This document shows, piece by piece, positions 8,366 to 58,676 of a stretch of 64,000 nt of DNA (its first letter is position 1; every line of letters starts with the position of its first letter). This DNA is from Burkholderiaceae bacterium (GTDB lineage Bacteria; Pseudomonadota; Gammaproteobacteria; Burkholderiales; Burkholderiaceae_D): NCBI GenBank assembly GCA_019751755.1, contig JAIENA010000185.1, positions 559 through 64,558 on the forward strand. Reading direction: 5' to 3'. The notes under the pieces are model-generated. The model did not search any database. It saw nothing but the letters and a program-made list of their open reading frames with translations, and was not told where the DNA came from. The translations under genes were made by a program, and so were the position numbers.

Positions 8366-8397
8366 TTGCAACCACGCAAAACGAATTCGGTTATACA
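8366..8397 (+). promoter_or_regulatory. box promoter A: TTGCAACCACGCA-N13-TATACA
   Basis: Box at 8366-8378 and -10-like hexamer at 8392-8397, 46 nt upstream of ATG 8443. Confidence 0.5.
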
Positions 8398-8442
8398 CCG
8401 GGTATGTAGTTTTAATCACTTAAACAAAAGGGAATTCCTTCC

Positions 8443-8826
8443 ATGAAAATCTCAAAACAAACTCTGCAACTCGCACTGCCGCTCTTCGCAATGGGTCTTA
8501 TAGTTGCATGCCCCGCGCATGCGGCAGGAACTGCAGATATTTTTGATCGCCTGTCGGCGATCACGGGCAAGCTGCCGGTTGTCAAAACAGCACTGATTTA
8601 CCTGTTCTTCCTGCTTGGCCTGGGCGCCATCGGCTGGGGCGGGATGGAGGCGCTCAAGAAGTCGAAAGGCCGGGATGGCGGTGATGTGACTTGGTCAAGT
8701 GTCGGCATCAAGATCGCTGCCGGCGCATTCCTTGTCGCCATTACTACGACTACCGACATCTTCACCCAAACCTTCGTCGGTACTTCGGCGTCGAGCACTC
8801 CGACCAACTCGACCAACGTACAGTAA
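8443..8826 (+). CDS. small membrane protein, IcmD/DotP (TraR)-like by position
   Basis: Signal/TM segment plus two further hydrophobic helices. 127 aa. Confidence 0.35.
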   Translation: MKISKQTLQLALPLFAMGLIVACPAHAAGTADIFDRLSAITGKLPVVKTALIYLFFLLGLGAIGWGGMEALKKSKGRDGGDVTWSSVGIKIAAGAFLVAITTTTDIFTQTFVGTSASSTPTNSTNVQ

Positions 8827-8832
8827 ATCGCG

Positions 8833-9516
8833 ATGGTCGAGCTCATTCCAGGCGTCAGCCGAAACACGTTCCGCGATCACGATCCTCAAGCGGAGGCGGC
8901 GGATGCCGCTTACCGCGCGAAGAGGCCTGCGGTCCTGCAGCGCGCGCATTACACCTGTCAGGCGTGTAGTGTGAAGTCGAGCGGCGGCCTGGAAGTTCAC
9001 CATAAGGATTGCAATCACGCGAACAACACGGATGAAAATTTCCTGCCCGAATGCGTGTTCTGCCACCCGGTGAATCACATCGGCGAGCTGGCAAGCCGTA
9101 TGTTGCGCGCCGACGAGTCCGAGCTCGCAGGAAGTGTGTCTCAGCTGGCCTATCTGCCTGACTTGCGGCAGGCTGACCTCTCCCACCTAATGCGCACGAT
9201 CGGCCACGTGTTGGCCAATCCCGATGCATCGGAAGATGAGAAGGGGGATGCGAAAGTGCTCCACGCGAGCCTTACGGAATACCAGCATTACATTGAGACG
9301 GTGTGGGGTTCGTCTAAGGCGGCGCACTTCGCGATCGCTTTGAAGGAGGTCTCTGCGCCCGTGTATGCGGCCCGCGCCGAGCCGATGAAGGGTCTGCGCG
9401 TGGTCTTTTCCCTTGGTGTGATTGTGAAGCAGGCGAAGAAGTTTAGCGATGAGTTCGCGTCGCTACCGATCTCATCATGGCCATCGATCTTCGCAAGACG
9501 CATCGCAACCCAATAA
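8833..9516 (+). CDS. IcmJ/DotN-position protein with an HNH-type Cys/His motif
   Basis: YTCQACSVKSSGGLEVHHKDCNHANNTDENFLPECVFCHPVNH matches the HNH / zinc-finger pattern. It occupies the icmJ slot upstream of icmB. Confidence 0.45.
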   Translation: MVELIPGVSRNTFRDHDPQAEAADAAYRAKRPAVLQRAHYTCQACSVKSSGGLEVHHKDCNHANNTDENFLPECVFCHPVNHIGELASRMLRADESELAGSVSQLAYLPDLRQADLSHLMRTIGHVLANPDASEDEKGDAKVLHASLTEYQHYIETVWGSSKAAHFAIALKEVSAPVYAARAEPMKGLRVVFSLGVIVKQAKKFSDEFASLPISSWPSIFARRIATQ

Positions 9517-9544
9517 TAACAACGAACCGAAGTACAAGGATCAG

Positions 9545-10825
9545 ATGTTTGAGGCGAATGTAAGGCACCGCAGCGCGACCCTGGCCGAGCCGAAGCCGAC
9601 GCCGCGTGAGGTGGCGGAGAAGCTCATGATCGGTATCGTCTTGCACGATAATCGTAACGCGCTTGCGGAAGGGTGGGCGTTCCTCCCGAACCGCGCGCCT
9701 TTTCGTGTCCGCGGGCTGTTTGACCTACCCAACGACGCCATGTGGATATCTTCGGGCGATTTTCAAGATTTCCGCAAGCTGGGTCAGGCCCAGTTGCACC
9801 ACGTGCGTCGCACCGGATACCTGGGTCTGAAGCTGTCCGAGATTGCGCAAGATTTCGGTATTCGCATCGACGGATATCACGCGATCGAAGGCGGCAAGGC
9901 GCTCGTGATCTACGTGCAGCACGCTGTGCGTATGGCCGTCGAGGTCTACGGACTGGACGACGTCATGCGCAATCTGCAGGACGAAACCCTGGTGGCGACG
10001 ATCAGTAAGGCTCTCCCGCCGGCGGCGCCTTCGAAGGACATGCTGTTGCAAAAGCTTGCGGCCGCGTATCAGAGCTGGTCATCAAAATACACCCCTTTCA
10101 TAGACAACAGCGTCCGTGTACGCCTGCGCTTCAACCGCATGGCCTACGCCGAATGGTTGCTGAGCAACCCAGTTCCGGACGCTGGCTGGTCGCATGCGCT
10201 ATCGGACGTTGGCTTTGACCATGACGCGGTCATGGCCGGCACGTTTCCTCCAACACTGATCCAAGCGGTAGTCGAATTCGACGGCGTGCCGTCGGAACTG
10301 GCGGAACTCATCGCCTACGGGGTCGGTGCGTCCAGGCAGCGCGCTAAGCGTACCTGGATGACTGATGTCGAATATCGCTGGATCAGCCGCTACGCTCGCG
10401 TGCACGTGCAATCGTATCTTGTGTCTTCGACGTGCCTACCCTTGCCGTCGGGGTGCCAGTTGCCGCATGGCCTCGTACAAGACAGGCTTGTAAAGGCGCT
10501 ACCAGCGTCCGGAATCGTGTCCTACATTCACTGCCAAGCGCTGATGTCGTCAAAATGGTCGAGGGTGACCGGCAGGAATGAATACGACCTGCACAGCACC
10601 TGGTTGCGAGCACACGACCGCGCGATCTGCTTTGAAGCCGCTCTCCGGTTGCAGCAGGCTGGGTTTCCGGTGTCGGGATATGGCAACGGCTCGGTGATAG
10701 TCAACGTCGATCGTGAGAAGTTGATCGATCTTGAAAAAGCTGCGATTGCGATGGACTTCACGAATCCTCGCTGGAACGCATTATTACAGGAGTTTGGCTA
10801 TGTCAGCCCCGATCATTCCCATTGA
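9545..10825 (+). CDS. hypothetical protein (426 aa) inserted between icmJ-like and icmB
   Basis: ATG 9545 is preceded by AAGGA. The longer listed ORF start (9449) overlaps the previous gene by 68 nt. Confidence 0.55.
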   Translation: MFEANVRHRSATLAEPKPTPREVAEKLMIGIVLHDNRNALAEGWAFLPNRAPFRVRGLFDLPNDAMWISSGDFQDFRKLGQAQLHHVRRTGYLGLKLSEIAQDFGIRIDGYHAIEGGKALVIYVQHAVRMAVEVYGLDDVMRNLQDETLVATISKALPPAAPSKDMLLQKLAAAYQSWSSKYTPFIDNSVRVRLRFNRMAYAEWLLSNPVPDAGWSHALSDVGFDHDAVMAGTFPPTLIQAVVEFDGVPSELAELIAYGVGASRQRAKRTWMTDVEYRWISRYARVHVQSYLVSSTCLPLPSGCQLPHGLVQDRLVKALPASGIVSYIHCQALMSSKWSRVTGRNEYDLHSTWLRAHDRAICFEAALRLQQAGFPVSGYGNGSVIVNVDREKLIDLEKAAIAMDFTNPRWNALLQEFGYVSPDHSH

Positions 10826-11087
10826 CCCGTTGGACCGCGCGCTCAGTCAGATCGTGTGGCGACTGCCGCTCGAGCTCACCGCCGAAATGGACAGCATCTT
10901 CCACATGACGCCGGTGGCTCGGATCGGACGCCTTATGGAAATCATTACCGCAGCCGCAAAGCGGGATCCGAATATTGTCGCCATCCTCAAGCAGCCTGAC
11001 GTGTTGCCCGGCCTCAAGCAAATGGCGGATGATCGCCGCGCGGAAATGGACGCTGCGGAGCAGATGAACCCAGCACGCGCTGGCTAA
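10800..11087 (+). CDS. hypothetical protein (95 aa)
   Basis: ATG 10800 is preceded by CAGGAG. It overlaps the previous gene end by 26 nt. Confidence 0.45.
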   Translation: MSAPIIPIDPLDRALSQIVWRLPLELTAEMDSIFHMTPVARIGRLMEIITAAAKRDPNIVAILKQPDVLPGLKQMADDRRAEMDAAEQMNPARAG

Positions 11088-11118
11088 TCGCAGTCCAATC
11101 TCAAACTCGAATTAGAAC

Positions 11119-14440: not shown

Positions 14441-14470
14441 TGTGATTACATGTGATTACGTGTGATATCA
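14441..14470. promoter_or_regulatory. three phased 10-bp direct repeats (TGTGATTACA TGTGATTACG TGTGATATCA)
   Basis: Tandem repeats with one helical turn of periodicity, 57-86 nt upstream of the AbrB-type gene. TTGACA lies at 14415-14420. Confidence 0.5.
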
Positions 14471-14526
14471 TTCCACTCGGTAACTCAATAGCGCATGGTT
14501 GTCGTGCAACTACATCGAGGGCAGTA

Positions 14527-14784
14527 ATGAAACTTAGGCGGATCGGGAATTCCTACGGTACGACGTTTAGCCGTGACGTACTCAATAGAGCCGGATTTGT
14601 AGAGGGGCAGGAACTTGATGTCGTGGCCTCTCAGGGAGAGATAAAGATCATTCCCGGACTCGGCAGCAGCATCACAGTTTCGTTCACAACTGCCGAGGCG
14701 AAGGCTCTTGCAACGGGCAAGCTGGATTCTGAATCTGGGGAAACAGCATTAAACAAAGTGCGCCGCATAGTCGGCGCTGAGTAA
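14527..14784 (+). CDS. AbrB/MazE/SpoVT-family antitoxin-like DNA-binding protein
   Basis: MKLRRIGNSYGTTFSRDVLNRAGFVEGQELDVV is the typical looped-hinge-helix signature. GAGGG lies 7 nt upstream of ATG 14527. Confidence 0.6.
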   Translation: MKLRRIGNSYGTTFSRDVLNRAGFVEGQELDVVASQGEIKIIPGLGSSITVSFTTAEAKALATGKLDSESGETALNKVRRIVGAE

Positions 14785-14797
14785 AGGAAACCGGATC

Positions 14798-15172
14798 ATG
14801 GTCATGAGTCCGCAATCTACGGAAGCGCTCGAAAGGCGTGTGCGCGAACTGGAGGCTGCTTTGGAAGGCGCTGTGGCCTACATGAAGCGTTTGCCGTTGG
14901 TGCCGACAACACTGGATGAGGTCCGCCGTGCGGAAAAGGTATTACTTCAAGTGGCCCCACCAGCAGTGCTTCGTGGCGAGCGCCACTACTCGTCAGGAGT
15001 AATGGTCGTGAGGGCCGAGTTGATTGGTGATGTGCTCACTTTGACGTCAGGTGACGTCGACAATCTGCCGCCGGAAATGGCCGAAAAATACAAGCTTTCG
15101 TTTTACGAAAAGTGTAAGAACGGCTACCAGGTCAAGCTCGCACCAGTGGTTGGGCCGAAAATCTTGTCCTGA
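14798..15172 (+). CDS. hypothetical protein (124 aa), partner of the AbrB-type gene
   Basis: Starts 14 nt after the previous stop behind AAGGAA. No known toxin motif recognised. Confidence 0.5.
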   Translation: MVMSPQSTEALERRVRELEAALEGAVAYMKRLPLVPTTLDEVRRAEKVLLQVAPPAVLRGERHYSSGVMVVRAELIGDVLTLTSGDVDNLPPEMAEKYKLSFYEKCKNGYQVKLAPVVGPKILS

Positions 15173-15633
15173 CGTGGATCCGATCGACGGCGCCGGCGTG
15201 CTGGCCACGTCGAGCAAGATGCGCGCGAATCGTCACCGCTGCCGGCGTCGACGGCCCTCAAGCAGGATCTGCCAGCTCCTCGATGTCACCGGCTGGCGCG
15301 GGCCACTCTGCGCCCCACTACTTTCCTTCCTATACTGAAACTGATCGACCGCCGTGTCGGTTATCGACGCGGTGCCCACTGCTCCCTCGGCCGAAATCTT
15401 CCGTGCCGCCAGCATTTACGTCACAGGGGCCTCGACGGTTTCTGATGCTTTCTTGTGCCTGTTCGCGGTGTTCGCGGCGCTGCGCTTTGGCTACGAGAAT
15501 AAATTTCACACAGAGCTTGTTGCAGCCGTGCGCCGCCAGATGCAGATGGTCACTGTAGGCCGAATGATGCTCGTGCCGGAGCAAGCTTTTCGTTCTGCAT
15601 AATTCGTTGCGCACGGCGAGTGCAAGCGTTTTT

Positions 15634-15665
15634 TTGCAACCACGCCTGACCGAAATTTCTATGAT
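15634..15665 (+). promoter_or_regulatory. box promoter B: TTGCAACCACGCC-N13-TATGAT
   Basis: Box at 15634-15646 and -10 at 15660-15665, upstream of ATG 15799. Confidence 0.55.
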
Positions 15666-15798
15666 GGGTCCATCAGCAATCGCATCAAGCGACCAGTTGA
15701 AGCAGCTTAGGCAGTAGAAGTTTTTTATGTGAATGGCATCGTCGACGGCCCAGACGTTGTCTACCAGATCTGGGCCAATTTCTGAAAAGGGACTCATC

Positions 15799-16590
15799 AT
15801 GTTCGGTACCATCCCCGGCCGCGGTAACGGCACCACCACCTTCGTGAACTACAACGGTAAAGCCGGTCTGTTCGTCATCGATCACAATGCCCAGAACGCG
15901 GAGGGTACCCTCCGCGAGCACACCACGACCACCGGTCGCAAGGTGTACAAGGAAGAGTACCCAGACCTGCTCTCGGCTTTCGTGCGCCGTGTCATCGTCA
16001 AGGAAGAAGACGTCTACCAGAAGCCGGGCGAGAAAGAAAACAAGATCCTGGTTTCGCTGCGCAGTCCGGACGGCAAGGACGCGGTGGTGAAGTTCAGCAT
16101 GGGCAGTGGCGCGCTGCAGGTTCTGGGCGCCATCAACGCCTCTGACCTGACTCAGCCGATCACCCTGAAGAATTACCTCTTCCAGGCTGGCAGCAAGGGC
16201 AAGGACAAGGAAGGTAACGAAGTCGTTCGCCTGAAGGATGAAGTGCGCCTGGTCGGTTACCAAGGCGACCAAAAGTTGATCAACAAGTATGGCGAAGGCG
16301 AAGTCGTGATTCCGAAGATCGATAAGATCGAAGTGAAGCACCCTGTCTCCGGTAAGCTGCTCGAGACAGTCAACGACTTCACCGCCCAGCACGAGTTCAT
16401 CGTGAATTTGGCGAAAAACGTCAACACCAAGGTCCAGGCCGCCAGCGGTTCGCAGCCGGCGCCGGTCGCACCGCAAGCCCAGCCTGCCCCGGCCGCAACC
16501 GCCGATGATGCCCAGCTGAGTGCCTCGGACATCCTGGGTGAGGACGACGGCGGTGCGGGCGATGCCGCGGCCTTCGCCCAAGGCGCATAA
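15799..16590 (+). CDS. hypothetical protein (263 aa), Lys/Glu/Gly-rich with a Pro/Ala/Gln linker and acidic tail
   Basis: ATG 15799 after AAAAGGG. Its codon choice looks like that of a well-expressed gene, and it is followed by a strong terminator. Confidence 0.6.
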   Translation: MFGTIPGRGNGTTTFVNYNGKAGLFVIDHNAQNAEGTLREHTTTTGRKVYKEEYPDLLSAFVRRVIVKEEDVYQKPGEKENKILVSLRSPDGKDAVVKFSMGSGALQVLGAINASDLTQPITLKNYLFQAGSKGKDKEGNEVVRLKDEVRLVGYQGDQKLINKYGEGEVVIPKIDKIEVKHPVSGKLLETVNDFTAQHEFIVNLAKNVNTKVQAASGSQPAPVAPQAQPAPAATADDAQLSASDILGEDDGGAGDAAAFAQGA

Positions 16591-16652: not shown

Positions 16653-16657
16653 ATTGC

Positions 16658-24640: not shown

Positions 24641-24750
24641 CTACTCATTTGCAGATTTTTTCAACGCACAATAGAAGTTGCTAACTTTCAATTCCAGTCC
24701 TATTCTTGTACCATAATCATCTTACGAAACAACGACTTTGGAATCTATAC

Positions 24751-26826: not shown

Positions 26827-27162
26827 ATGAGAACGGAGCAAATAATGAAGACGCTGAACGGTGCGCGACGCGCTATTGGACTGAGCGGCCAGGGGCTCGG
26901 CTGCAGCCCGGTCGTTATCACCAATACGCTCAGGCAGCTCGATCGCGAGAACTGCTCCGCAGTCCTGCCGCTGACCGTGGCCGCGCTCCAGAGCGTTCTG
27001 GAAAAGAAGGCGCCGGTGTCGGAGAAAGTTGCGGTCGGCTCACTGTCGGAAATCAATGCCGTGCGTGAGCAGGTCAGGCAGCGCATGGCGCAAGAGCAGA
27101 TTGAAAACGTGTCCGATCTGAACGATGAATCGGAAGGGATGGCTCCAAGCCGTCCATCCTGA
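26827..27162 (+). CDS. hypothetical small protein (111 aa), possible regulator
   Basis: Inner ATG of listed ORF 26719..27162. First gene after box D. Confidence 0.45.
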   Translation: MRTEQIMKTLNGARRAIGLSGQGLGCSPVVITNTLRQLDRENCSAVLPLTVAALQSVLEKKAPVSEKVAVGSLSEINAVREQVRQRMAQEQIENVSDLNDESEGMAPSRPS

Positions 27163-27174: not shown

Positions 27175-27402
27175 ATGAGTAGCATCAATCAAGGCACCTC
27201 GATAGCGGTTCGCGCGCTCGACGAGTTGCCCGAAAATCAGCAAGCGCTCTACAGAGCGCGGTATATGGCTGAAGAGACGCGTGAGGCGACCTGTAATCGC
27301 CTGAGAATTGAGCCGGCGCAATACGACCAGTTGCTGGCCGAGACCTTGCGTTCCTTGCGCCGGATGGTGGCTGCCGTTCCCGCCTGCCCTGCAGTCGCTT
27401 AA
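27175..27402 (+). CDS. small sigma-70 region-4 / LuxR-type HTH-like protein (75 aa)
   Basis: LPENQQALYRARYMAEETREATCNRLRIEPAQYDQLLAETLRSLRRMV follows the LPxxQRxxfxLxyxxxxsxxEiaxxLxisxxtVxxxlxrArxxLR pattern of region 4.2. Confidence 0.4.
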   Translation: MSSINQGTSIAVRALDELPENQQALYRARYMAEETREATCNRLRIEPAQYDQLLAETLRSLRRMVAAVPACPAVA

Positions 27403-41292: not shown

Positions 41293-41600
41293 CGGCCCAG
41301 GGAATTGAAGAGCTCACGCACGCAGTCGCTGGATACCATTTCAAGGCTATGAGCATAGGCGGCCGTGGCTCCCTGATGGTAGGTGAGCGCTTCCTCGCCC
41401 ACCAGGGGGAACGGGGCATCTTCCGGGGCAGCACGTTTCGAACTTGCCAGCTTTTTCTCGAGCAGCGCGATGCCTCGCAAGAGACCACATGGCCCGGAAA
41501 GGGAATCTCGCAAAGTGTCGTTATCGGTGCGCGCGGTCGTGGTGGCGGAGCGAACTGGAGCCGCGATGGCTTTTGGAATCGGGAAAGTCGAGTTGGTCAT
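41217..41600 (-). CDS. hypothetical protein, paralog A (MTNSTFPIP...), nested in frame in the GNAT ORF
   Basis: ATG 41600 is preceded by AAAAGGA and by box promoter O. Confidence 0.45.
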   Translation of the reverse strand: MTNSTFPIPKAIAAPVRSATTTARTDNDTLRDSLSGPCGLLRGIALLEKKLASSKRAAPEDAPFPLVGEEALTYHQGATAAYAHSLEMVSSDCVRELFNSLGRCPPMMRRWSRRIISWRRRCSANSA

Positions 41601-42305
41601 GTTGGATCCTTTTAGCGGTGGGAGTAACGAGGCGATACTAAGCTGGAGCGAGGCGCGTGGTTGCGCCTCAGGCCTGCGCGGGCGGCGTGCCGAGCGGGGA
41701 GGAGGCAGGTACACGTTGACGCCGGCGTCTGTGACGATCTCGATGCATCGGGCAGTTACGACGTCGGCCGGCGCGCGATACGCGACGTAAAGACGCGGCG
41801 CGCGTCCGCGTGTCTCCCGATCGAAAATCGACGCGCGTTGGAGCTCGAGCCTAGTGGCGATCGCGCGTGCGCCCTGGTTGCCTGCTTCGGTCTGGATGTT
41901 GACGAATTCCAGATCCGGCGCGTCGCCCCGGCACTGCTGGTACGCGATGGCGCTCAGGATCGTGGCTAGACCTTTTCCGCCGTACGCTGGGCGCACGCCG
42001 AACGAGACATTGCAGCCCTGGGCGCCTGTTTCGCGGCTGATGATGGTCCCGGCCCAGGCGGCAGCAACAACCTGGTCGTCGATGCAGGCGGTGACGCAGA
42101 AGGGCAGCATCTGGCCGTACCAGTCAAGCAGGGGCATGATGAGGCCTACGGTGCGGCCGCATAAATCCGAGTACCTGTCCGGGTCGTCGGCGAGCATGTC
42201 GCGAACGCGTGGCAAAGCGAATCGTTGACCCTCGGCAAAAAGGTCTAGGCCCAGGTGATGGCCGATTAGGACAGGGGGTAGTGGTTGGAACTGGTCAAGG
42301 TACAT
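41217..42305 (-). CDS. GNAT-family acetyltransferase ORF that reads through into paralog A without a stop
   Basis: GVRPAYGGKGLATILSAIAYQQC is a GNAT acetyl-CoA-binding motif. No stop codon occurs between the GNAT domain and 41217. The likely start is ATG 42305 (the listed start 42326 is GTG). Confidence 0.45.
   Translation of the reverse strand: MYLDQFQPLPPVLIGHHLGLDLFAEGQRFALPRVRDMLADDPDRYSDLCGRTVGLIMPLLDWYGQMLPFCVTACIDDQVVAAAWAGTIISRETGAQGCNVSFGVRPAYGGKGLATILSAIAYQQCRGDAPDLEFVNIQTEAGNQGARAIATRLELQRASIFDRETRGRAPRLYVAYRAPADVVTARCIEIVTDAGVNVYLPPPRSARRPRRPEAQPRASLQLSIASLLPPLKGSNMTNSTFPIPKAIAAPVRSATTTARTDNDTLRDSLSGPCGLLRGIALLEKKLASSKRAAPEDAPFPLVGEEALTYHQGATAAYAHSLEMVSSDCVRELFNSLGRCPPMMRRWSRRIISWRRRCSANSA
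41635..41666 (-). promoter_or_regulatory. box promoter O: GCGCAACCACGCG-N13-TAGTAT (minus strand)
   Basis: Box at 41666-41654 and -10 at 41640-41635, 35 nt upstream of ATG 41600. It lies inside the long GNAT reading frame. Confidence 0.5.
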
Positions 42306-42332: not shown

Positions 42333-42364
42333 ATGGTGCCGTAGGGCGCGGGGCGTGGTTGCGC
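42333..42364 (-). promoter_or_regulatory. box promoter N: GCGCAACCACGCC-N13-CACCAT (minus strand)
   Basis: Box at 42364-42352, between the recombinase stop and the GNAT start. Confidence 0.4.
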
Positions 42365-43762: not shown

Positions 43763-43794
43763 TTGCAACCACGTCTGATGTGTTTCCAGATAAT
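43763..43794 (+). promoter_or_regulatory. box promoter E: TTGCAACCACGTC-N13-GATAAT
   Basis: Box at 43763-43775 and -10 at 43789-43794. Confidence 0.55.
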
Positions 43795-43825: not shown

Positions 43826-43963
43826 ATGTCCGAGATTAAAACCAGCAACATCGCGCGTTCTGCTGTAGCGCCGATCCCATTCGAATCCATGAATGGCCGG
43901 GGTTCTCTCGCTTCGAACTATGCGACTGGCGTAAATGCGCCGGCGCCGAGGAAAGTCCGATGA
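43826..43963 (+). CDS. small ORF (45 aa, MSEIKTSNIARS...)
   Basis: GGAG lies 11 nt upstream. Its TGA overlaps the ATG of the next gene (ATGA at 43960-43963). Confidence 0.3.
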   Translation: MSEIKTSNIARSAVAPIPFESMNGRGSLASNYATGVNAPAPRKVR

Positions 43964-48192: not shown

Positions 48193-48205
48193 GTGCAACC
48201 ACGCC
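48193..48205 (+). promoter_or_regulatory. box copy F1 (GTGCAACCACGCC), no -10 at the canonical gap
   Basis: In tandem with F2, 35 nt upstream of it. Confidence 0.4.
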
Positions 48206-48227
48206 CCGATCCCGGTGCCGATAGATG

Positions 48228-48259
48228 TTGCAACCACGCGCGAAGCTCACCGGTACGAT
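48228..48259 (+). promoter_or_regulatory. box promoter F2: TTGCAACCACGCG-N13-TACGAT
   Basis: -10 at 48254-48259. ATG 48293 follows AAGGAACAGG. Confidence 0.55.
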
Positions 48260-49777: not shown

Positions 49778-50419
49778 TCATCCCCCGGGCGCCCGCTCCG
49801 ACGCGCCTTCACTTTCGTCGTCTTGTTCCGCGCTGGCGGCACCCTCCGGTGCTTGAATTAGCGTTCCCGCCATGTCGGCGATCACCATGCCAAAGCACCC
49901 TAGGCTCTCACCACGTTCCGGCTCGTACTCCTCGACCAGCAAGGTTGCCATCTGTTCTTCGGTTGGCGGTGTCGCGGACCAGGTCGTGTAATACGTCTCG
50001 CCATGCCGGTGCGAGTGCGTGATCACGTACGGCTGCAAGCCATCGAGTTGCTGGGCGCGCTCGAGGAGGGCGAGGGCGAGCGCGCGCAGTGCCCCGGCGG
50101 GGAGCGCGGCATTGTCTGGCGCAGCCAGCAGCGTTGTGGCGCGTGCGTCGGCCGCTTCGAGCTCCTTGATAAGGGCGGCATGCTCTTCCTGGACCGAATC
50201 TTCCTCGCCATGCCATGCGCTGAGAGACGCGCCGAGTTGGGAGTGAAGGTCGGTCGCAATTGCGGCAAGCGCAGGCGCGGCGGCCAGCAGGTGCCCGAGG
50301 GCATCAGGCTGGCGAGGCGGGACGATGCAGATGACGGAGTAGCTATTCTTCTCCATAACCGTGCGGGCTGCTGGGTCGTATTCCCAGGCTTTTTGCAAAT
50401 CACTCATTGGGGTCTCCAT
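49778..50419 (-). CDS. hypothetical acidic protein (about 213 aa)
   Basis: ATG 50419 abuts the upstream stop (TGATG). Confidence 0.5.
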   Translation of the reverse strand: METPMSDLQKAWEYDPAARTVMEKNSYSVICIVPPRQPDALGHLLAAAPALAAIATDLHSQLGASLSAWHGEEDSVQEEHAALIKELEAADARATTLLAAPDNAALPAGALRALALALLERAQQLDGLQPYVITHSHRHGETYYTTWSATPPTEEQMATLLVEEYEPERGESLGCFGMVIADMAGTLIQAPEGAASAEQDDESEGASERAPGG

Positions 50420-50976
50420 CAAGGGGTGGGGCCGGAAGTCGGCTCCGTTTCAAAATCTGGTTCGGATTCAGTCTGGACGGACTCAACGGCGCGGCGCTGG
50501 GCAGGACCGACGTGTACATAGGCGCAGTGCTTGCGTACGAGATCCTGTGTTCCAGAGCCATAGCGATTCGTCTCGCCGAATTTCAACGCATCGATGTCGA
50601 GCGTAACCAATGTTCCATTTGAAAATCGGATAGGCGCGTCAGCCGGCATGTCGGATGCTTCGTAGCTCACCAGTACCTCGTGGAGCCAGCGGTGCATGCC
50701 GAAAGCGTCCGGTACTGGATTTAGCGCATTACGGACCCACACGTAAGGGTAGAGCGCGTGCGGGGAGCGTTCGGCGAAGAACTGCTCGAGGGCGACGGTC
50801 GTGATGGCGTTCGTCACAGCGCGCGATTCGCCCGTGGATAGCCGGCTCAGGCTGTCGAGAAAGCTGGCCTTCTTCGCCGGGAAGGTGTTCCAGAGGGAGG
50901 GGAAGCGGCGCCATTCAGGCTCGCTGCCTCTGCGGCGAAGGGCCGCCTCGTGATCAAAAGCGCAGGAAGAAAGCAT
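50419..50976 (-). CDS. hypothetical protein (185 aa)
   Basis: ATG 50976 lies downstream of box promoter G. Confidence 0.5.
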   Translation of the reverse strand: MLSSCAFDHEAALRRRGSEPEWRRFPSLWNTFPAKKASFLDSLSRLSTGESRAVTNAITTVALEQFFAERSPHALYPYVWVRNALNPVPDAFGMHRWLHEVLVSYEASDMPADAPIRFSNGTLVTLDIDALKFGETNRYGSGTQDLVRKHCAYVHVGPAQRRAVESVQTESEPDFETEPTSGPTP

Positions 50977-51007: not shown

Positions 51008-51039
51008 AATGTATCTGGCCTACCCGAACGTGGTTGCAC
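51008..51039 (-). promoter_or_regulatory. box promoter G: GTGCAACCACGTT-N13-TACATT (minus strand)
   Basis: Box at 51039-51027 and -10 at 51013-51008. Confidence 0.5.
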
Positions 51040-51202: not shown

Positions 51203-51658
51203 TTATGCGAAGCTCTCGGTCGCATACTCGATCTCTTCGAGAGGATCGCCGTCGCCGCCGAAGCGCTGGTCGCCGACGTAGCTCACCATGTGCACAGCGT
51301 CGATGCGCGTGAATTTCGAGAATGCAGCAGCGACGTTGCCATCCACCAGGTCGACGAGGGCTTCGGGGACATACACGTGCTTGCCGATGCTGCTGTAGTT
51401 ACCGCCGTAAAAATTCATGTCGTACTCGACGCACACGTGCGGATGATCGACATCCGACATGATGGCGTTCATCTCCGCACTGGAGAGGCTGGCGGCCAGT
51501 TCGGCATTCTGGGAACTCGACCAGTTGCGGCCGGCGGCGCCGACCATCTTGGCGCGCAGCCGCCAGACGAAAGTGTCACCGACGGGCGTTCCATCACGAT
51601 CGCGGAAGCCCTCCGCGAAGATGCCGTTGGCGCGGTTATTAAAGTGGTAGGAATTCAT
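51203..51658 (-). CDS. hypothetical protein (151 aa, MNSYHFNNRANG...)
   Basis: ATG 51658 after GGAG. The upstream part of the listed 266-aa ORF is junk-like and contains box H. Confidence 0.5.
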   Translation of the reverse strand: MNSYHFNNRANGIFAEGFRDRDGTPVGDTFVWRLRAKMVGAAGRNWSSSQNAELAASLSSAEMNAIMSDVDHPHVCVEYDMNFYGGNYSSIGKHVYVPEALVDLVDGNVAAAFSKFTRIDAVHMVSYVGDQRFGGDGDPLEEIEYATESFA

Positions 51659-51685: not shown

Positions 51686-51717
51686 ATGGTAGAGGGCCAG
51701 GCTGCGCGTGGTTGCAA
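51686..51717 (-). promoter_or_regulatory. box promoter H: TTGCAACCACGCG-N13-TACCAT (minus strand)
   Basis: Box at 51717-51705 and -10 at 51691-51686, 28 nt upstream of ATG 51658. Confidence 0.55.
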
Positions 51718-52212: not shown

Positions 52213-52695
52213 TCACGGCGCTGGAGCGCAGCGCTCGCCTTCTTCCTGCTCGGCGGCGCCATGCGCGAGCGCGGCCTCGGCAGCCAAGTGCTCGGCTCGC
52301 ATCATCTTCTCGATGTAGCCCAGCAGATGATCCGCCAGGCCATCATCGACGCGTATGCGGCATTCGAAGAAGGCCATGTCCGGAACATTCATCTTGTCCG
52401 TGCTGACCCAGGGCACGTGTCCACCGTCCTTATTGGCTAGTACCATTGCGTGCTTCCCCAAGAAAAGCACAGTGCTGCACGAGGTGCTGCATGCGACATA
52501 GCTATTGCCGGCGTACCGTGCCAGCGAGGTCAGCATGATCTCGTTCCCGGCACTAGGTAGATCCGGTACCAGCTTAAGCACTTCGAGTGCCACACGCGTT
52601 GCCTTGTTTCGCAGCGGTTCGTCTCGAGGGTCGCTCAGGATTGCGGAGATCGCGGCTGGGTTGGCGCGTTGTGCTTGGCTCTCGATAGTGCTCAT
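52213..52695 (-). CDS. hypothetical protein (160 aa)
   Basis: ATG 52695. No motif recognised. Confidence 0.5.
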   Translation of the reverse strand: MSTIESQAQRANPAAISAILSDPRDEPLRNKATRVALEVLKLVPDLPSAGNEIMLTSLARYAGNSYVACSTSCSTVLFLGKHAMVLANKDGGHVPWVSTDKMNVPDMAFFECRIRVDDGLADHLLGYIEKMMRAEHLAAEAALAHGAAEQEEGERCAPAP

Positions 52696-52775
52696 GGGTG
52701 TCTTCTTTCTGCTTTAGATGGGCGTGGCGCTGGTGATCGGTGTCGAAATGTTATCGGGAATAGCCTCGGGCGGCA

Positions 52776-52788
52776 GTGCAACCACGCC
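52776..52788 (+). promoter_or_regulatory. orphan box copy I (GTGCAACCACGCC)
   Basis: Exact box but no -10 at the canonical gap and no plus-strand gene downstream. It points into the 3' end of the pseudogene. Confidence 0.35.
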
Positions 52789-52813
52789 GCTCCGGCCGCG
52801 CCAGAGCTGGCAC

Positions 52814-53648
52814 TAGTCGTGGGGAGCTTGGGCCGCTGGAGCGTGTTCTTCCTCGCGCTGTTCCAGCACCACGTCGAAGAGCTCGACGAACGCGTCGACG
52901 TCAAGGCAGGCGATGTCGCTGGGCGTGACCTGCTTGTCGTTGAATCAAACGTCGGGGCCGGTGGCAGGGGGAGGAACTGACCTCGATGTCGTATCCTCCC
53001 GCGAAATACAGGCCGGCGCTCAGGATCGGACGCTGGGTTGTCTCGGCGCCGGCGGCAACGCTGATGTACTTCACCAGCGTGAACGTGCCCACGCGCTCCC
53101 CGGTTTCCATCACCTCGATTGCTAAGAATCGCGACCCTGCCTCGCTGTTCGCGTGAACGGCCGCTTCGAAACCGCGCCGGCACAGCACCTCGGCCATCCG
53201 GTCGAATGGGGCGCGGGCCGCCGGCAGCAATTTGTCCAAAATGCTTTGTTGCGGTAGGCCGCGAGCTGCTCGGAGAGGCGCACAGGACCGCAGACGCTCT
53301 CCAGCGCCACCTCGCCAGCAGATAACGCGTCGACCGCGTCGACGGTGATCGTGATGGAGGCATCGCAGGTGTACAGGCGAATCCCGCCACCATCAGGCGT
53401 GGATTCCTTGACCTGCACGCTGATCGGCTCGCCTTGAGCGATCGGGTCAATTTTTGGTCAGTTGCTGAGCGCACGGTGTCGACGGTGTAGTTCCAACTCG
53501 GCAAGAATTCGCGTGCGTCGTCTGCTGCATATCTGCTGGCGATAAGACGGCTCGTTGCGGTCACTTGGATGTTGCTGGCGACGAGCGCGACGGCAAAGCG
53601 TCTGGCGTGAGAGGTAGCGCTGACGGTTGGTGTGGAAGAAGGAGGCAT
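52814..53648 (-). pseudogene. disrupted gene of unknown function (at least 3 frame changes)
   Basis: Protein-like segments lie in different minus-strand frames. These are MPPSSTPTVSATSHARRFAVALVASNIQVTATSRLIASRYAADDAREFLPSWNYTVDTVRSATDQK; then IDPIAQGEPISVQVKESTPDGGGIRLYTCDASITITVDAVDALSAGEVALESVCGPVRLSEQLAAY; then LLPAARAPFDRMAEVLCRRGFEAAVHANSEAGSRFLAIEVMETGERVGTFTLVKYISVAAG...GGYDIEV; then FNDKQVTPSDIACLDVDAFVELFDVVLEQREEEH...*. Junctions fall at homopolymer runs (T5 at 53451-53455, A4 at 53238-53241, G5 (C5 on the coding strand) near 52966-52970). Confidence 0.45.
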
Positions 53649-53703
53649 GGTGGTTGACTCGTTTTGTGATGAGTCACGGTAACGCGCCGCGCTCGGCTTT
53701 GCA

Positions 53704-53735
53704 GTGCAACCACGCCACCAAAAAACGGTGAAAAT
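53704..53735 (+). promoter_or_regulatory. box promoter J: GTGCAACCACGCC-N13-GAAAAT
   Basis: Box at 53704-53716 and -10 at 53730-53735. ATG 53814 is downstream, across an AT-rich leader containing the palindrome ACAATAA-tt-TTATTGT (53774-53789). Confidence 0.5.
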
Positions 53736-53813
53736 CATCAGGTAGATGGTGTTTATTCGAAATTATTCGGCGTACAATAATTTTATTGTGCTGTGAATAA
53801 AGGTAAATAAAGG

Positions 53814-55028
53814 ATGGATGCGTTCTACTATTCAAGGCCTGCGCTTGCTGAACACTTGGTTGCCGACCTCACCGGGGCAAATCCGTTTAGCGATGCGCCA
53901 AACGGATTGTTCTTGGCGGCGCCAAGGCGGACCGGCAAGTCGACGTTCCTGCAAAACGAGTTGCGGCCGGCATTGGAGGGAACTGGTCGTGTCGTCGTCT
54001 ATGTAGACCTGTGGAGCGACAAAAGCCGGAACCCTGGCGCCCTTATTGCGGACGCGGTCGGGGGGGAGTTGCAGAAGCACCTCGGTATCGTGGCGAAGAC
54101 GGCGAAGGGCGCTGGCATTAGCGAGCTCAACATAGCCGGGTGGATGAAAATCGACACGAAGAAGATCGGCACGATCGACGGGCTGACCCTCACCGACGCG
54201 CTGCGTGCCTTATGCGAGATGTCCAGGAAGCCAGTGGTGCTGATGATCGACGAAGCCCAGCACTCGCTCACAAGCGATGAAGGGGAGACGGCGATGACGG
54301 CCCTGAAGTCGGCGCGTGACCAGCTGAACACGCCCAGCGAAACCCGGCTGCTCTTGGTCATGTCCGGTTCGGATCGCGACAAGCTGCTACGCCTGGTGAA
54401 CAGCAACGCGGCGCCGTTCTTCGGATCAGCTATCACTCGCATGCCCGAGCTTGACCGCAATTTTATCGTCCACATCGCTACCCTGATCGAGCGCAGCTAC
54501 CCGCGCATGGCGCCTATCGCCGTCGACGTCCTGTGGGATGCTTTCGTGCGCCTGGCGCACCGCCCGCAGCCGCTCCTCCGCCTGCTGGGCATCGTACTGA
54601 ACCCCCTGAATTCTCCGGTACCAGGATTCGAGAGGGAAGTTCTGCTCATGGCCGAAGCGCAGCGCGCCGACGACGAGCGCACGATGGAATCAGCCTATCT
54701 GGTGCTGCGCCCGATCGAGCAGGCGGTCCTGTGGCGCATGTTCGAGCAGAAGAACCGCTTCAGGCCGTACGACGCCGAGGCGCTGGTCTTCTATCGCGAG
54801 AAGACGGGGGAAAAGATCACAGCGCAGAAAGCCCAGGCCGCGATCGCATCGCTGCGCGCGCAGACGCCGTCGCTCGTCTGGAAATCAGCCAAGGGCGAGT
54901 ATGCGCTGGACGATACCGGGATGTATCAGTGGTTCGAAAAACGACGCCAGGAGGGAACGTGGCCGCCAGTTGGCTTGGATCTCGCCGAGCCCGACCAAGA
55001 AGATGAGCCGGATACGCCGCGGCCGTGA
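53814..55028 (+). CDS. AAA+/P-loop ATPase (archaeal-ATPase-like)
   Basis: Walker A LAAPRRTGKSTFL and Walker B VVLMIDEAQH. Confidence 0.65.
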   Translation: MDAFYYSRPALAEHLVADLTGANPFSDAPNGLFLAAPRRTGKSTFLQNELRPALEGTGRVVVYVDLWSDKSRNPGALIADAVGGELQKHLGIVAKTAKGAGISELNIAGWMKIDTKKIGTIDGLTLTDALRALCEMSRKPVVLMIDEAQHSLTSDEGETAMTALKSARDQLNTPSETRLLLVMSGSDRDKLLRLVNSNAAPFFGSAITRMPELDRNFIVHIATLIERSYPRMAPIAVDVLWDAFVRLAHRPQPLLRLLGIVLNPLNSPVPGFEREVLLMAEAQRADDERTMESAYLVLRPIEQAVLWRMFEQKNRFRPYDAEALVFYREKTGEKITAQKAQAAIASLRAQTPSLVWKSAKGEYALDDTGMYQWFEKRRQEGTWPPVGLDLAEPDQEDEPDTPRP

Positions 55029-56098: not shown

Positions 56099-57319
56099 TT
56101 ACCGGCAATTCGATTCATCATTAGTGCTTTGCTCATCGCCATCGCCCATTAACGTCTCGCCTGAATGTGCTGCAAAACGGGACACCTTAACTGCGTCCTT
56201 TGCGGCTTTGGCATTAATTAACTCACTGTAGCGAAAGGCAACCTCATCGGCGGTCGTGAAGCCAATCTTGAGGTTAAGGGTGTTCGCCACCTCATTGCGA
56301 ACGCAGGCAATGAGGTGAGCTTCTTCGGCTGTAACCGTTTTCGTGGGCCAGCCCTTTGTGTAGAGTAGTTCCTTTGGGATACGCGCTTCTGCCCGCTGGC
56401 GCATCACGGCCTTTTCCTTTGCGTCGACAATGGCTGCGCGCAGTTGTCGCGGCAGCAGGTGCGGGGCGACATCCGCCAACCAACGGTTTCCCTGGAAGGC
56501 GAATGTTGATTCTGCCTCGAGCTCTACGAGTTCAATGTAAACCTCGTGATTGTCGACGCAGCCGGCCGAGGCCATTAGGTCCGCCTCGGAACTCATGATG
56601 CAATAGGCGCAGGAGATCCGACTCATCCCATATTTGGAATACCCTTCGTGAAGGGCAAGCCCTGACGACGCGATCGTGCCCAACACTTGGTCGATGCTGA
56701 ATTCGATGACCGCATTCCAGGTTTGGCCCTCCAGCCCTTTGCGATCGAGACGCGGATCTGGCTTCGACACCGGTGCCTTGGCGCGGTTGTCGCTCTCCTC
56801 ACGGCGGATGCCAGCGACGTTCACGATGTGCTGACCGGGGAATCGCTTTTTCAGCGCGCTAGATATAACAGCAGCTTTTAATTCAGACGTACAGAACCTC
56901 ATGGAGGGGGGGCTCCAGGGGAGGATTAGCTTTACGCAAGAGAGGTCAGCATAGCGCGCGACGTTGTTCTTCCAACGGCCTTGCCAGCGATCCATCATGT
57001 CGCCAGCCTGGCGCCGGACTACGAGCAGCTCCCAGCCCAGATGTGCGGCCAAGCGCTCACACTGCGGCAGGCTCTCGGTCCACTCGATGCGGCCGAGGTC
57101 CGAGTGCACGAGTAGGCGATGTCCGCTGTGGCCAATCTCGTTGAGGTGCTTGTTGACGGCGATCGCGCAGGCGTCCGAGTCTTTGCCACCGCTGACGCCG
57201 ACCGCGACAACGCAGTCGCGCGCGAGCAGGCTTGCAATTTCGGGCGTCATGGCCACAGGTGGCACTTCGGCACCGAAGTGGCGGTTCAGCAGCTGCACTG
57301 GGAATACGCGGTCGTTCAT
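56099..57319 (-). CDS. PAPS-reductase-family PP-loop ATPase-like protein
   Basis: VVAVGVSGGKDSDACAIAV (SGGxDS PP-loop). ATG 57319 (MNDRVFPVQLL...). Confidence 0.7.
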   Translation of the reverse strand: MNDRVFPVQLLNRHFGAEVPPVAMTPEIASLLARDCVVAVGVSGGKDSDACAIAVNKHLNEIGHSGHRLLVHSDLGRIEWTESLPQCERLAAHLGWELLVVRRQAGDMMDRWQGRWKNNVARYADLSCVKLILPWSPPSMRFCTSELKAAVISSALKKRFPGQHIVNVAGIRREESDNRAKAPVSKPDPRLDRKGLEGQTWNAVIEFSIDQVLGTIASSGLALHEGYSKYGMSRISCAYCIMSSEADLMASAGCVDNHEVYIELVELEAESTFAFQGNRWLADVAPHLLPRQLRAAIVDAKEKAVMRQRAEARIPKELLYTKGWPTKTVTAEEAHLIACVRNEVANTLNLKIGFTTADEVAFRYSELINAKAAKDAVKVSRFAAHSGETLMGDGDEQSTNDESNCR

Positions 57320-57366
57320 GTCGGGCTCACGAGAGGAAATCAGGTGGGCGATCTTAGGCGCGGGAA

Positions 57367-57392
57367 GGCGTGGTTGTCCGTGCAACCACGCC
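57367..57392. promoter_or_regulatory. full palindromic version of the box: GGCGTGGTTG-tccgtg-CAACCACGCC
   Basis: 10-bp perfect arms between the methylase-like gene stop (57401) and the PAPS-reductase-like start (57319). A separate cgGACA-N18-TAAGAT sigma-70-like promoter overlaps it on the minus strand. Confidence 0.5.
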
Positions 57393-57400: not shown

Positions 57401-58258
57401 TCAGCGGACGCGCGGCACTTCAGGTTCGGCGTGAGCGTCGCCGTCCGCATCGTCATTGCTCCTGCTGGCGCCAGCGAACATGGCTGCCGCAGCGGTTTCG
57501 GCGCGTGCACGCGACAGGCGCGCGCCCCAGTTGTCCATTATGTGCGCCGGGGTATACCAGTGCGAGTACTCCTCCAGAGTGAGGGTATTGCCGTGCACGA
57601 TGATTGCCGGCACGTGCATGAGGGATAGCTGGACGTAGGCCATCATCGCAGCCGTCCAATCCAAGTCAGTAGCAATCACGTGGACATGGCGCTGGTAACT
57701 GAGGCCTCGCTCCTGCATCGCCAGCATCATCGCTATGATGGTAGATCCAGAGCCCGATGCAGGCTCATTTACCGTGACAAAGCCATGCTTTGCGACTTTT
57801 TCCACGATATCGTCGGATATCGTGATCGCCGCCATCAGCTGGCAGATATCGTGCGGAGTGAAGAACTGCCCCATTTGGTTGTTGCCGAGCTCAAGTTGCA
57901 TGTAGATTTCGCCCATGATGTCGCGCGGCGACACGTGCAGGCCCTCCTGTAGCTCGGCGAACATATGCGCGATCGTCACTGCCTCCTCGCGGCTGTATTT
58001 GCGCACGGTCTGCATGTAGAGCTCTTCGCGTGTCTCCGCTTGGCGCAGGTCCATCTTGCTGAGCGCCACCGCGCTCATAGTCACGAAGTCGCGGAAAACT
58101 GTCCGCCGGTCGTGGCGCCGGCCGACCTCGTTGATCATCCTGATGATGTTAGTGCGGTGGAGGGTTGCCTGCTTCGACAGATTCGCTGCCCGGTCGTGCT
58201 CGCTGATGGAGGTGGCCTGGAGCGGCCACGCGAATGAAGACTCCAGGTCGCGTTTCAT
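57401..58258 (-). CDS. N6-DNA-methylase-like protein lacking the catalytic NPPF/Y motif
   Basis: GQFFTPHDICQLMAAI (motix X-like) and VNEPASGSGSTIIAM (SAM motif I) are present. The ORF ends shortly after HGNTLTLEE and no (N/D)PP(F/Y/W) is seen. ATG 58258. Confidence 0.5.
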   Translation of the reverse strand: MKRDLESSFAWPLQATSISEHDRAANLSKQATLHRTNIIRMINEVGRRHDRRTVFRDFVTMSAVALSKMDLRQAETREELYMQTVRKYSREEAVTIAHMFAELQEGLHVSPRDIMGEIYMQLELGNNQMGQFFTPHDICQLMAAITISDDIVEKVAKHGFVTVNEPASGSGSTIIAMMLAMQERGLSYQRHVHVIATDLDWTAAMMAYVQLSLMHVPAIIVHGNTLTLEEYSHWYTPAHIMDNWGARLSRARAETAAAAMFAGASRSNDDADGDAHAEPEVPRVR

Positions 58259-58370
58259 AAAGGTCTCCGCCGGAATGAATTGGCTGTGGTGCGCGAGGAG
58301 ATTAAGTGCGAGGACAGGATGAAGGCAGACAGAGCTGGCATTTTGGCGTAAAGGCGGTATGAATGCCCGG

Positions 58371-58402
58371 ATTACACCAGTTCGCCGGCGGCGTGGTTGC
58401 AA
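58371..58402 (-). promoter_or_regulatory. box promoter L: TTGCAACCACGCC-N13-TGTAAT (minus strand)
   Basis: Box at 58402-58390 and -10 at 58376-58371, upstream of ATG 58258. Confidence 0.5.
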
Positions 58403-58428
58403 TCTCACGAACGCACCAACTCACGTTG

Positions 58429-58452
58429 CCGTGGCCATTACCGTGGCCATTA
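58429..58452. repeat. exact tandem duplication CCGTGGCCATTA x2
   Basis: Seen directly, in the divergent intergenic region. Confidence 0.9.
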
Positions 58453-58472
58453 ATTAGCAGCTGCGGCCACCC

Positions 58473-58505
58473 GGCTCCGTTACGACCTGCGGTCGTAACG
58501 GAGCC
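58473..58505. other. 15-bp perfect hairpin GGCTCCGTTACGACC-tgc-GGTCGTAACGGAGCC
   Basis: Seen directly. It lies between divergent promoters L and M, has no adjacent T tract, and follows no upstream gene end. Confidence 0.9.
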
Positions 58506-58644
58506 GAATAGGACCACCACCCCTCAGACCTGCTTCATTTTTTCGTGAGCGGCGAAGTTGCCGACAGCAGCCCCCGCATTGGCCTGGTTAATGGAAACTG
58601 CCGGGAAGTTCTTGAATCAGGGAAAGGCCCGCGTGGGAAAAGCT

Positions 58645-58676
58645 GAGCAACCACGCCTGCGATCGCTGGGCAATAT
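58645..58676 (+). promoter_or_regulatory. box promoter M: GAGCAACCACGCC-N13-CAATAT
   Basis: Box at 58645-58657 and -10 at 58671-58676, 29 nt upstream of ATG 58705. Confidence 0.5.

Follow-up and report, generated by a model that had tools for sequence, protein, structure and literature searches.

The box-bearing locus and its plasmid

The 64-kb stretch of Burkholderiaceae DNA analysed here (64,000 nucleotides of contig JAIENA010000185.1, hereafter the window) carries ahead of many of its genes a short conserved box, which stands in the place of a -35 element at a fixed distance from a -10 hexamer, and it also carries a gene for a 75-amino-acid (aa) protein with the predicted fold of sigma-70 region 4, the candidate reader of that box. 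The window's type IV secretion system (T4SS) genes code for DotI/IcmL- and DotH/IcmK-like proteins and a 1050-aa TraG-P-loop ATPase. Further genes encode a 1998-aa strawberry-notch helicase, a topoisomerase in the form of two overlapping open reading frames (ORFs), a TraW-like protein, a bactofilin and DsbC, as well as a tyrosine recombinase, RdgC, orphan methyltransferases and an AbiE toxin-antitoxin pair.

In PLSDB a single extended nucleotide relative turned up, pJAB4160, a 160-kb plasmid of Janthinobacterium sp. HH102; in a megablast search against plasmids, pJAB4160 was matched by the helicase alone, and the other matches were to a group II intron described below. Because pJAB4160 is syntenic with the window and carries rep, parAB, an I-type transfer system and a type IV pilus, the window is part of a pJAB4160-family plasmid with an I-type (Dot/Icm-like) transfer system, and not of an integrative and conjugative element. 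These large conjugative plasmids form a family found in soil and water Burkholderiales. The window's 75-aa protein is identical to one encoded on an 87.5-kb Burkholderiaceae contig from a metagenome-assembled genome, and its DotH-like protein has an exact match on a 2-kb contig without context.

A conserved box in rigid register with a -10 element

The core of the box, CAACCACG, occurs 19 times on the two strands of the window, and 100 dinucleotide-preserving shuffles of the window gave a mean of 2.32 copies and a maximum of 7; composition-matched shuffling, named as a check in a first-pass annotation made from the sequence alone, thus fails to reproduce the counts. The extended box KTGCAACCACGCS, which can also be written (T/G)NGCAACCACG(C/T)N, is present at 17 of the 19 cores, and each of the 17 coordinates originally listed carries both core and extended box. 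The two remaining cores (17588- and 48514-) are bare and lie inside coding sequence without a flanking box. Since intermediate-scoring sites are almost missing from a weight-matrix scan of the window, the box is an all-or-none element. When the 17 sites are aligned, information is confined to two blocks, one from -3 to +9 (counted from the core) and one from +23 to +28; the second reads TAnnAT, with A at +24 in 14 sites and T at +28 in 12. Fifteen boxes are oriented toward plausible start codons lying 27-112 nt downstream of the box, in agreement with the earlier observation that the boxes point at the next gene, for which a range of 20-170 nt had been given. The accompanying idea that the box is one half of the palindrome GGCGTGG-TTGCAA-CCACGCC did not hold: the full palindrome has 0 occurrences, and the sites are single, asymmetric and oriented.

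The spacing between the two conserved blocks is equally strict. An offset scan of the 16 GCAACCACG sites in the window found NAnnnT, which has a background frequency of 4%, at precisely 23 nt from the start of the core, or 13 nt past the box, in 11 sites (binomial P 1.7e-12), and every other offset scored 0-3. This one sharp peak bears out the fixed 13-nt gap described by the first-pass annotation, whose 13 listed hexamers were also read correctly. With the hexamer set at -12 to -7, the fixed gap puts the box at -38 to -26, centred at about -32, and the 17 aligned sites hold no conserved positions upstream of -38. The sequence 'CAACCA' takes the position expected of a -35 hexamer at a 17-bp spacing, and it agrees with TTGACA at two of six positions. 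Several positions that were not used in site selection are nevertheless biased among 25 sites: A is found at -8 in 19 (P 8e-9), -12 is T or C and never A, and the predicted +1, 7 nt past the hexamer, is a purine in 20 sites and C in none. The consensus that emerges for the -10, YAcaAT, has A at both -11 and -8 and T at -7; an extended -10 is not apparent, as G at -14 is not enriched (8/25). Canonical two-hexamer sigma-70 promoters occur at chance frequency in the 41-59 kb interval that contains 13 of the boxes (5 seen, 5.2 expected). These results show the existence of a promoter class with rigid geometry and a -10 of the primary-sigma type.

Three familiar promoter types were considered and rejected. 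Were TTGCAA an ordinary sigma-70 -35, the spacer would reach 20 nt; a MerR-type long-spacer promoter would call for a dyad that the spacer lacks; and for a sigma-54 promoter the GG-to-GC spacing of the reverse complement GGCGTGGTTGCA is wrong.

The same data bear on whether the box is a positive promoter element at all or instead the operator of a global plasmid repressor. Operators repeated across the promoters of a plasmid are an established arrangement, exemplified by the KorA/KorB system of IncP-1 plasmids, but the boxes are not palindromic operators of the IncP type: they are asymmetric, always gene-oriented and in rigid register with the -10. Moreover, the box promoters have neither a usable sigma-70 -35 nor an extended -10, so without activation through the box there would be little to repress, and a repressor operator is accordingly very improbable.

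The individual sites of the window, with the genes that they are predicted to drive, and the two genes of the candidate reader's operon are listed below (N13, the 13-nt spacer).

8366..8397, plus strand: box promoter TTGCAACCACGCA-N13-TATACA, for 8443-8826 (DUF6750) and downstream T4SS genes
15634..15665, plus strand: box promoter TTGCAACCACGCC-N13-TATGAT, for 15733-16590 (285 aa); same -10 in pJAB4160, L009 and L019
18523..18554, plus strand: box promoter GCGCAACCACGCC-N13-TACCGT, for the 1998-aa strawberry-notch helicase (18602-24598) and the split topoisomerase; same -10 in pJAB4160, L009 and L019
26755..26786, plus strand: box promoter TTGCAACCACGCC-N13-CAAAAT, before the operon of the 75-aa protein; predicted positive autoregulation
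26845..27162, plus strand (longer ORF from 26827): gene for the ~105-aa partner, directly upstream of the gene for the 75-aa protein; helical
27175..27402, plus strand: gene for the 75-aa free-standing sigma-70 region 4 protein, proposed box reader, as judged from Pfam matches of homologs and AF2/Foldseek
41635..41666, minus strand: box promoter GCGCAACCACGCG-N13-TAGTAT, inside the GNAT ORF, for an in-frame internal start at 41600
42333..42364, minus strand: box promoter GCGCAACCACGCC-N13-CACCAT, for the GNAT-domain ORF 41217-42305
43763..43794, plus strand: box promoter TTGCAACCACGTC-N13-GATAAT, for 43826-43963 and 43960-44670
48193..48224, plus strand: upstream box of a tandem pair, GTGCAACCACGCC, with a poor -10 (CGATAG)
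48228..48259, plus strand: box promoter TTGCAACCACGCG-N13-TACGAT, for 48293-49231
51008..51039, minus strand: box promoter GTGCAACCACGTT-N13-TACATT, for 50419-50976
51686..51717, minus strand: box promoter TTGCAACCACGCG-N13-TACCAT, for 51203-51658
52776..52788, plus strand: orphan box GTGCAACCACGCC, no -10 at the fixed distance; faces a gene-poor 1.1-kb stretch
53704..53735, plus strand: box promoter GTGCAACCACGCC-N13-GAAAAT, for the AAA ATPase 53814-55028
57348..57379, minus strand: box GGACAACCACGCC, with a better hexamer, TAAGAT, at 12 nt (not 13), for the PAPS-reductase-like gene 56099-57319
57380..57392, plus strand: inverted partner box GTGCAACCACGCC, lacking both a -10 and a downstream gene; pairs with 57367-57379 in a potential hairpin (10-bp arms)
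58371..58402, minus strand: box promoter TTGCAACCACGCC-N13-TGTAAT, for the N6 methyltransferase 57401-58258
58645..58676, plus strand: box promoter GAGCAACCACGCC-N13-CAATAT, for the methyltransferase 58705-60255

Some of these sites have unusual surroundings. The two boxes without a -10 are those at 52776+ and 57380+. The first faces the gene-poor 1.1 kb at 52695-53814, in which the sole long ORF (52692-53738, minus strand) would encode an implausible protein of pI 12 and an Rfam scan gave no match. The second belongs to a head-to-head pair at 57367-57392, GGCGTGGTTG tccgtg CAACCACGCC, situated after the N6-methyltransferase gene's end and before the next gene start; its plus-strand copy may belong to a terminator-like structure or serve as a second binding site. 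Within the GNAT ORF (41217-42305, minus strand), the internal box promoter at 41635-41666 is followed by a ribosome-binding site and an in-frame ATG, a layout kept in pJAB4160 (L003 13186-14493, minus strand), which suggests that a nested C-terminal product of ~127 aa is made from the internal promoter.

Conservation of box promoters in related plasmids

Box density is known from plasmid sequences, namely those of the window, pJAB4160 and related elements. pJAB4160 contains 24 CAACCACG cores in total; its central 50-kb piece (L003) has 12, a number reached by no shuffle and to be set against 1.9 expected, and the other pieces have fewer cores and individually weaker enrichment. NAnnnT stands at the same offset in 14 of the 20 GCAACCACG sites of this plasmid (P 2e-14). 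When orthologous promoters of the window and pJAB4160 are compared, the box and the individual -10 are kept and the 13-nt spacers have diverged, as at the 285-aa gene (TATGAT), the helicase (TACCGT) and the operon that begins with a 111-aa gene (CAAAAT). Boxes of pJAB4160 also precede its DotD/TraH operon, its DotA operon, ParM and a UvrD-type helicase; its rep and parAB have no box ahead of them in their own orientation. The proposal that related elements be scanned for the motif is thus answered by a plasmid that retains box, spacing and -10 at orthologous as well as additional promoters. Box and -10 are conserved, with diverged spacers, in Massilia and metagenomic relatives too (L006, L009, L011, L019 and L020), and the CAAAAT box promoter before the operon of the 75-aa protein is kept in all five of these and in pJAB4160.

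A free-standing sigma region 4 protein as candidate reader

The operon behind the 26755 box comprises the ~105-111-aa gene, the gene for the 75-aa protein (hereafter the sigma-4-like protein), further small genes and the TraW-like gene, and a box precedes this operon in every box-positive replicon. Homologs of the sigma-4-like protein fall into 36 clusters, all of 74-77 aa, and among them Pfam recognises Sigma70_r4_2 (PF08281) in 34 of 36 (best E 5.6e-7) and Sigma70_r4 (PF04545) in 17; some sources label them 'sigma factor-like HTH DNA-binding protein'. The AF2 model has four helices (pLDDT 79), and in a Foldseek search of the PDB its top ~40 matches are all sigma region 4 (TM 0.7-0.8, rmsd 1.1-2 A), including SigL, sigma-32, sigma-28, SigF and sigmaE region 4 bound to -35 DNA. 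Profile and model together show a region 4 profile and the predicted four-helix helix-turn-helix (HTH) fold of the sigma-70 region 4 superfamily, so that 27175..27402, one of the candidate factors singled out by the first-pass annotation, would encode a free-standing sigma region 4 domain. A profile search of 1.84 billion representative proteins gave 23 clusters only, 20 of them of 67-90 aa, and the family of such free-standing region 4 proteins therefore appears to be rare.

Sigma region 4 and the HTH of LuxR/FixJ-type regulators are related folds, which raises the question of whether the sigma-4-like protein is instead a conventional class II activator of the GerE kind that contacts region 4 of host sigma-70, or the alpha subunit, without replacing anything on the beta-flap. 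The promoter geometry and the co-occurrence of box and protein would be the same for such an activator, and a FixJ match does appear in the Foldseek list. That first LuxR/FixJ match, however, stands at rank 42, far below the sigma region 4 structures, and Pfam gives Sigma70_r4 and Sigma70_r4_2 and not GerE. The box, with its centre at about -32 and nothing conserved farther upstream, also occupies region 4's own place, so that hardly any space is left for both. A class II activator is for these reasons an unlikely identity for the protein.

A second alternative is a split sigma factor of the SigO-RsoA type, in which the 75-aa protein would form the region 4 half and an unrecognised plasmid or host protein the region 2 half that reads TAnnAT. 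Conserved neighbours of unassigned fold do exist, namely the 105-aa partner and a 152-aa protein. A Pfam batch scan for Sigma70_r2 (E<=0.01) found no match among the submitted window ORFs (~70 larger ones) and none among the 114 unannotated ORFs of the complete pJAB4160, a search that a very divergent region 2 could escape; single-sequence phmmer with RpoE, FecI and RpoD queries was too insensitive for this purpose, as its sigma-4 positive control was barely detected. The sole sigma-related match among those 114 ORFs is the homolog of the 75-aa protein itself (Sigma70_r4, E 5e-5). The -10 resembles the primary-sigma type and not the CGT of extracytoplasmic function (ECF) sigma factors, and the 105-aa partner has no aromatic residues and no structural match. 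With no region 2 protein detected, a split sigma is a decidedly poor prospect.

The partner encoded directly upstream is itself highly conserved, more so than the sigma-4-like protein. It has no Pfam match, no PDB sequence match, no fold match and no recognisable anti-sigma domain, and its model is helical and of moderate confidence. Other DNA-binding candidates on these plasmids are few, and H-NS and HU are of non-specific types. The CI-like HTH protein encoded at 31398-31781, which had also been put forward as a candidate factor, is excluded as the general reader, since it is absent from pJAB4160.

Protein and box across deep divergence

Distant homologs of the sigma-4-like protein (~31-38% identity) always occupy the same operon slot, after the split topoisomerase. 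In L013 and L015 the operon is preceded by TTGGAACCACGCC-N13-GAAAAT or CACAAT, the L015 helicase is preceded by GTGCAACCACGTC-N13-TACGGT, and L017 has TTGCAACCACGCC with GACAAT. The box variant of L013 and L015 reads GGAACC at -36 to -31, and elsewhere the same positions read G(C/G)AACC. A genome-collection scan with the sigma-4 profile confirmed at least two Massilia genomes. The box is missing from three lineages, L016 and L018 (13-17 kb of each) and Variovorax sp. RA8 plasmid 3 (L021), the last being the only plasmid returned by tblastn searches with divergent sigma-4 proteins. A mismatch-tolerant motif search of 40 kb of the Variovorax plasmid gave nothing above the null, and the control recovered the box in 14-15 of 17 window promoter regions.

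Loss of the box coincides with changes at particular positions of the protein. Four box-positive lineages, that of the window included, share (R/K)-Y at 29-30, T39 and Y50, the last at the start of the predicted recognition helix, whereas the box-negative proteins have M-Y/I/L, N-F/V/F and T-I/A/F at positions 29-30, 39 and 50. Overall identity to the window protein fails to separate the two groups, as box-negative L016 is 39% identical and box-positive L013 and L017 are 31-34% identical. This covariation involves few lineages and is suggestive, not proof. In L018, (T/C)GTACAAAAC occurs in two divergent promoter regions (663-821 and 9570-9740), twice only, which is too little to go on, and the divergent sigma-4-like protein of this lineage might recognise it in place of the box; the promoters of L016 and L018 are too few to define a substitute motif.

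These comparisons also speak to the possibility that something else reads the box, for instance a host ECF sigma factor with a GGAAC-like -35 or the 105-aa partner, and that the sigma-4-like protein is a member or modulator of the regulon. GGAAC is the textbook ECF -35 motif, and the box does hold this generic 'AAC/GGAAC' motif; the sigma-4-like protein is close to neutral, its recognition helix is weakly basic, and its partner is the better conserved of the two. Yet the box, through its invariant CCACGCC extension, is far more than a generic ECF -35, and the -10 is not ECF-like. In the three lineages that lost the box, it is the sigma-4-like protein that is altered at three otherwise constant positions, and the backbone, and with it probably similar hosts, was kept. 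The remaining DNA-binding candidates are either absent from pJAB4160 (the CI-like protein) or non-specific (H-NS, HU). A different reader consequently seems improbable.

Proposed mechanism

The central suggestion of the first-pass annotation, a private promoter class in which a conserved box stands in the -35 place and is read by an element-encoded activator, appropriator or sigma-like factor, is supported computationally, since shuffles fail to yield the box, the spacing is rigid, a relative keeps the layout and the product of 27175-27402 is predicted to be a sigma region 4 domain. The full element would consist of KTGCAACCACGCS at -38 to -26, a non-conserved 13-nt spacer, a YAcaAT -10 and a purine start 7 nt on. 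About 14 such promoters in the window, and a similar set on pJAB4160, would control the transfer (T4SS) genes, the giant helicase/topoisomerase operon, the orphan methyltransferases and many small genes, so that most backbone genes of the plasmid family would be expressed through the box.

Sigma region 4 normally binds both the -35 element and the beta-flap of RNA polymerase, and we infer that the 75-aa protein binds the box and engages the polymerase. On balance we lean toward a model in which this plasmid-encoded, sigma-4-only factor reads the box and so supplies -35 recognition in trans, and region 2 of a host primary-type, sigma-70-like factor reads the -10. The circuit is predicted to be positively autoregulated because the factor's own operon carries the box, and the ~105-aa partner may serve as a co-factor or antagonist. 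It is tempting to take the model a step further. The free-standing region 4 might dock on the beta-flap in place of region 4 of host sigma-70, generating a hybrid holoenzyme with host regions 2 and 3 on the -10 and the plasmid region 4 on the private -35, the 105-aa partner possibly acting in the manner of AsiA. We hold this extension only tentatively, as the less likely part of the proposal; if it is true, nearly the whole plasmid backbone would be under a self-reinforcing switch that is invisible to host promoters.

A number of observations tell against a sigma-4-like protein as the box reader. The product of 27175-27402 taken alone gives only a sub-threshold Sigma70_r4_2 match (E 0.021), and its profile-versus-PDB sequence matches are marginal. 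It has a pI of 6.2, and its recognition helix is short of basic residues, which is unusual for a sequence-specific sigma region 4. The invariant 13-bp box exceeds the typical footprint of region 4, and its recognition may also involve a second protein, perhaps the 105-aa partner. Since the box-positive replicons all descend from a common ancestor, shared ancestry confounds the joint occurrence of box and protein. The box-negative status of L016 and L018 refers to the 13-17 kb examined of each. Finally, start-up expression would be unexplained if all promoters upstream of the factor gene need the factor.

Other features of the window and its relatives

A group II intron occupies approx. 16656-18505, with an RT/maturase ORF at 17025-18425 (RVT_1 and GIIM) and an Rfam group-II-D1D4-3 match at 16739-16909, and it is ~75-78% identical to copies on Sinorhizobium, Ralstonia and Burkholderia replicons. 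It begins just past the terminator hairpin of 15733-16590 and ends ~13-17 nt before the helicase promoter box; the intron is missing from L009 and pJAB4160, and it replaces all sequence upstream of about -51 of the helicase promoter. The topoisomerase that follows the helicase is split between 24706-26262 and 26259-26789 (plus strand), and pJAB4160, the Variovorax plasmid and all Massilia and metagenomic relatives show the same split, which is therefore a conserved two-gene arrangement and neither a frameshift error nor a pseudogene. In the Massilia varians-type relatives L006, L007 and L008 (5676-7264), a HipA/HipB-like toxin-antitoxin pair lies between helicase and topoisomerase and breaks what in the window is a single box-driven operon. 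At 60674-62196 (plus strand), the gene of an AbiEii toxin (Pfam E 8e-23) stands ahead of a 208-aa gene at the place of an AbiEi antitoxin; the pair has no box, and it would be a type IV toxin-antitoxin or abortive-infection module.

pJAB4160 has two ~3-kb unannotated gaps (L002 4745-8473 and L003 43879-47040) in which all six frames are open. Boundaries recur within them at intervals of roughly 400 nt in the first and about 250 nt in the second, a pattern that resembles long tandem repeats. The first gap separates the 1050-aa ATPase gene from the 264-aa gene, where the window has three short ORFs (14452-15558).

Comparison with known systems

A close parallel is found in the middle promoters of phage T4, where the -35 gives way to a MotA box with its centre near -30 and the place of region 4 on the beta-flap is taken by its mimic AsiA (PMC6755090). 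As in T4, a sigma-70-type -10 is combined here with a conserved box near -30 in the -35 place, and small element-encoded proteins would act at the position of sigma region 4, with two adjacent small genes whose products could co-operate. The reader proposed here, by contrast, has a sigma region 4 fold, whereas MotA has a double-wing domain; the element is a conjugative plasmid and not a lytic phage; and the box sequences are unrelated. Neither the MotA nor the AsiA family had a Pfam match among the ~70 larger window ORFs and the 114 unannotated pJAB4160 ORFs.

ECF sigma factors characteristically recognise AAC at -35 and a CGT-type -10, are positively autoregulated and are co-transcribed with an anti-sigma (PMC8103513). 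The plasmid system shares with them an ECF-type region 4 (Sigma70_r4_2), a -35 with AAC or GGAAC, a factor gene behind its own promoter type and a small, presumably co-transcribed gene. It departs from them in that region 2 is missing from the plasmid protein (67-90 aa in 20 of the 23 clusters), the -10 is TAnnAT/YAcaAT and the conserved -35 block extends over 13 bp. The split sigma SigO-RsoA likewise has its region 4 function on a separate polypeptide, but no region 2 partner was detected on the plasmid, and the -10 suggests use of the host primary sigma.

GerE, a stand-alone LuxR-type HTH regulator of 74 aa that acts in Bacillus sporulation at sites not confined to one fixed promoter position, is similar in size, has a related four-helix HTH fold and, like the plasmid protein, lacks a regulatory domain; Pfam and Foldseek, however, put the plasmid family with sigma region 4 and not with LuxR/GerE. 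Element-wide control through one short motif at many backbone promoters is shared with KorA/KorB of IncP-1 plasmids and with SetCD/AcaCD of SXT/IncC elements. KorA and KorB are repressors that act at palindromic operators, SetCD and AcaCD belong to the FlhDC type of activator, and to our knowledge neither group of regulons uses a sigma-domain protein.

A literature search with the box sequence returned only eukaryotic primers, and a wider search of incomplete coverage found no account of the box, of regulation in this plasmid family or of any mobile-element regulon governed by a free-standing sigma region 4 protein. We therefore classify promoters with a factor-specific box replacing the -35 as a known kind, and a single-domain sigma-4 candidate factor as a type undescribed in the searchable literature. 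If the proposal is true, it would explain how a family of large, almost wholly unannotated environmental plasmids coordinates transfer, establishment and anti-restriction-type genes as one host-insulated regulon. The 13-bp box and the 75-aa protein could furnish a compact orthogonal pair for synthetic biology in Betaproteobacteria, and the system is open to direct testing in Janthinobacterium sp. HH102, the cultured strain that carries pJAB4160. Beside appropriation in T4 and the split sigmas, it would represent a third route by which bacterial RNA polymerase can be retargeted without a complete sigma factor.

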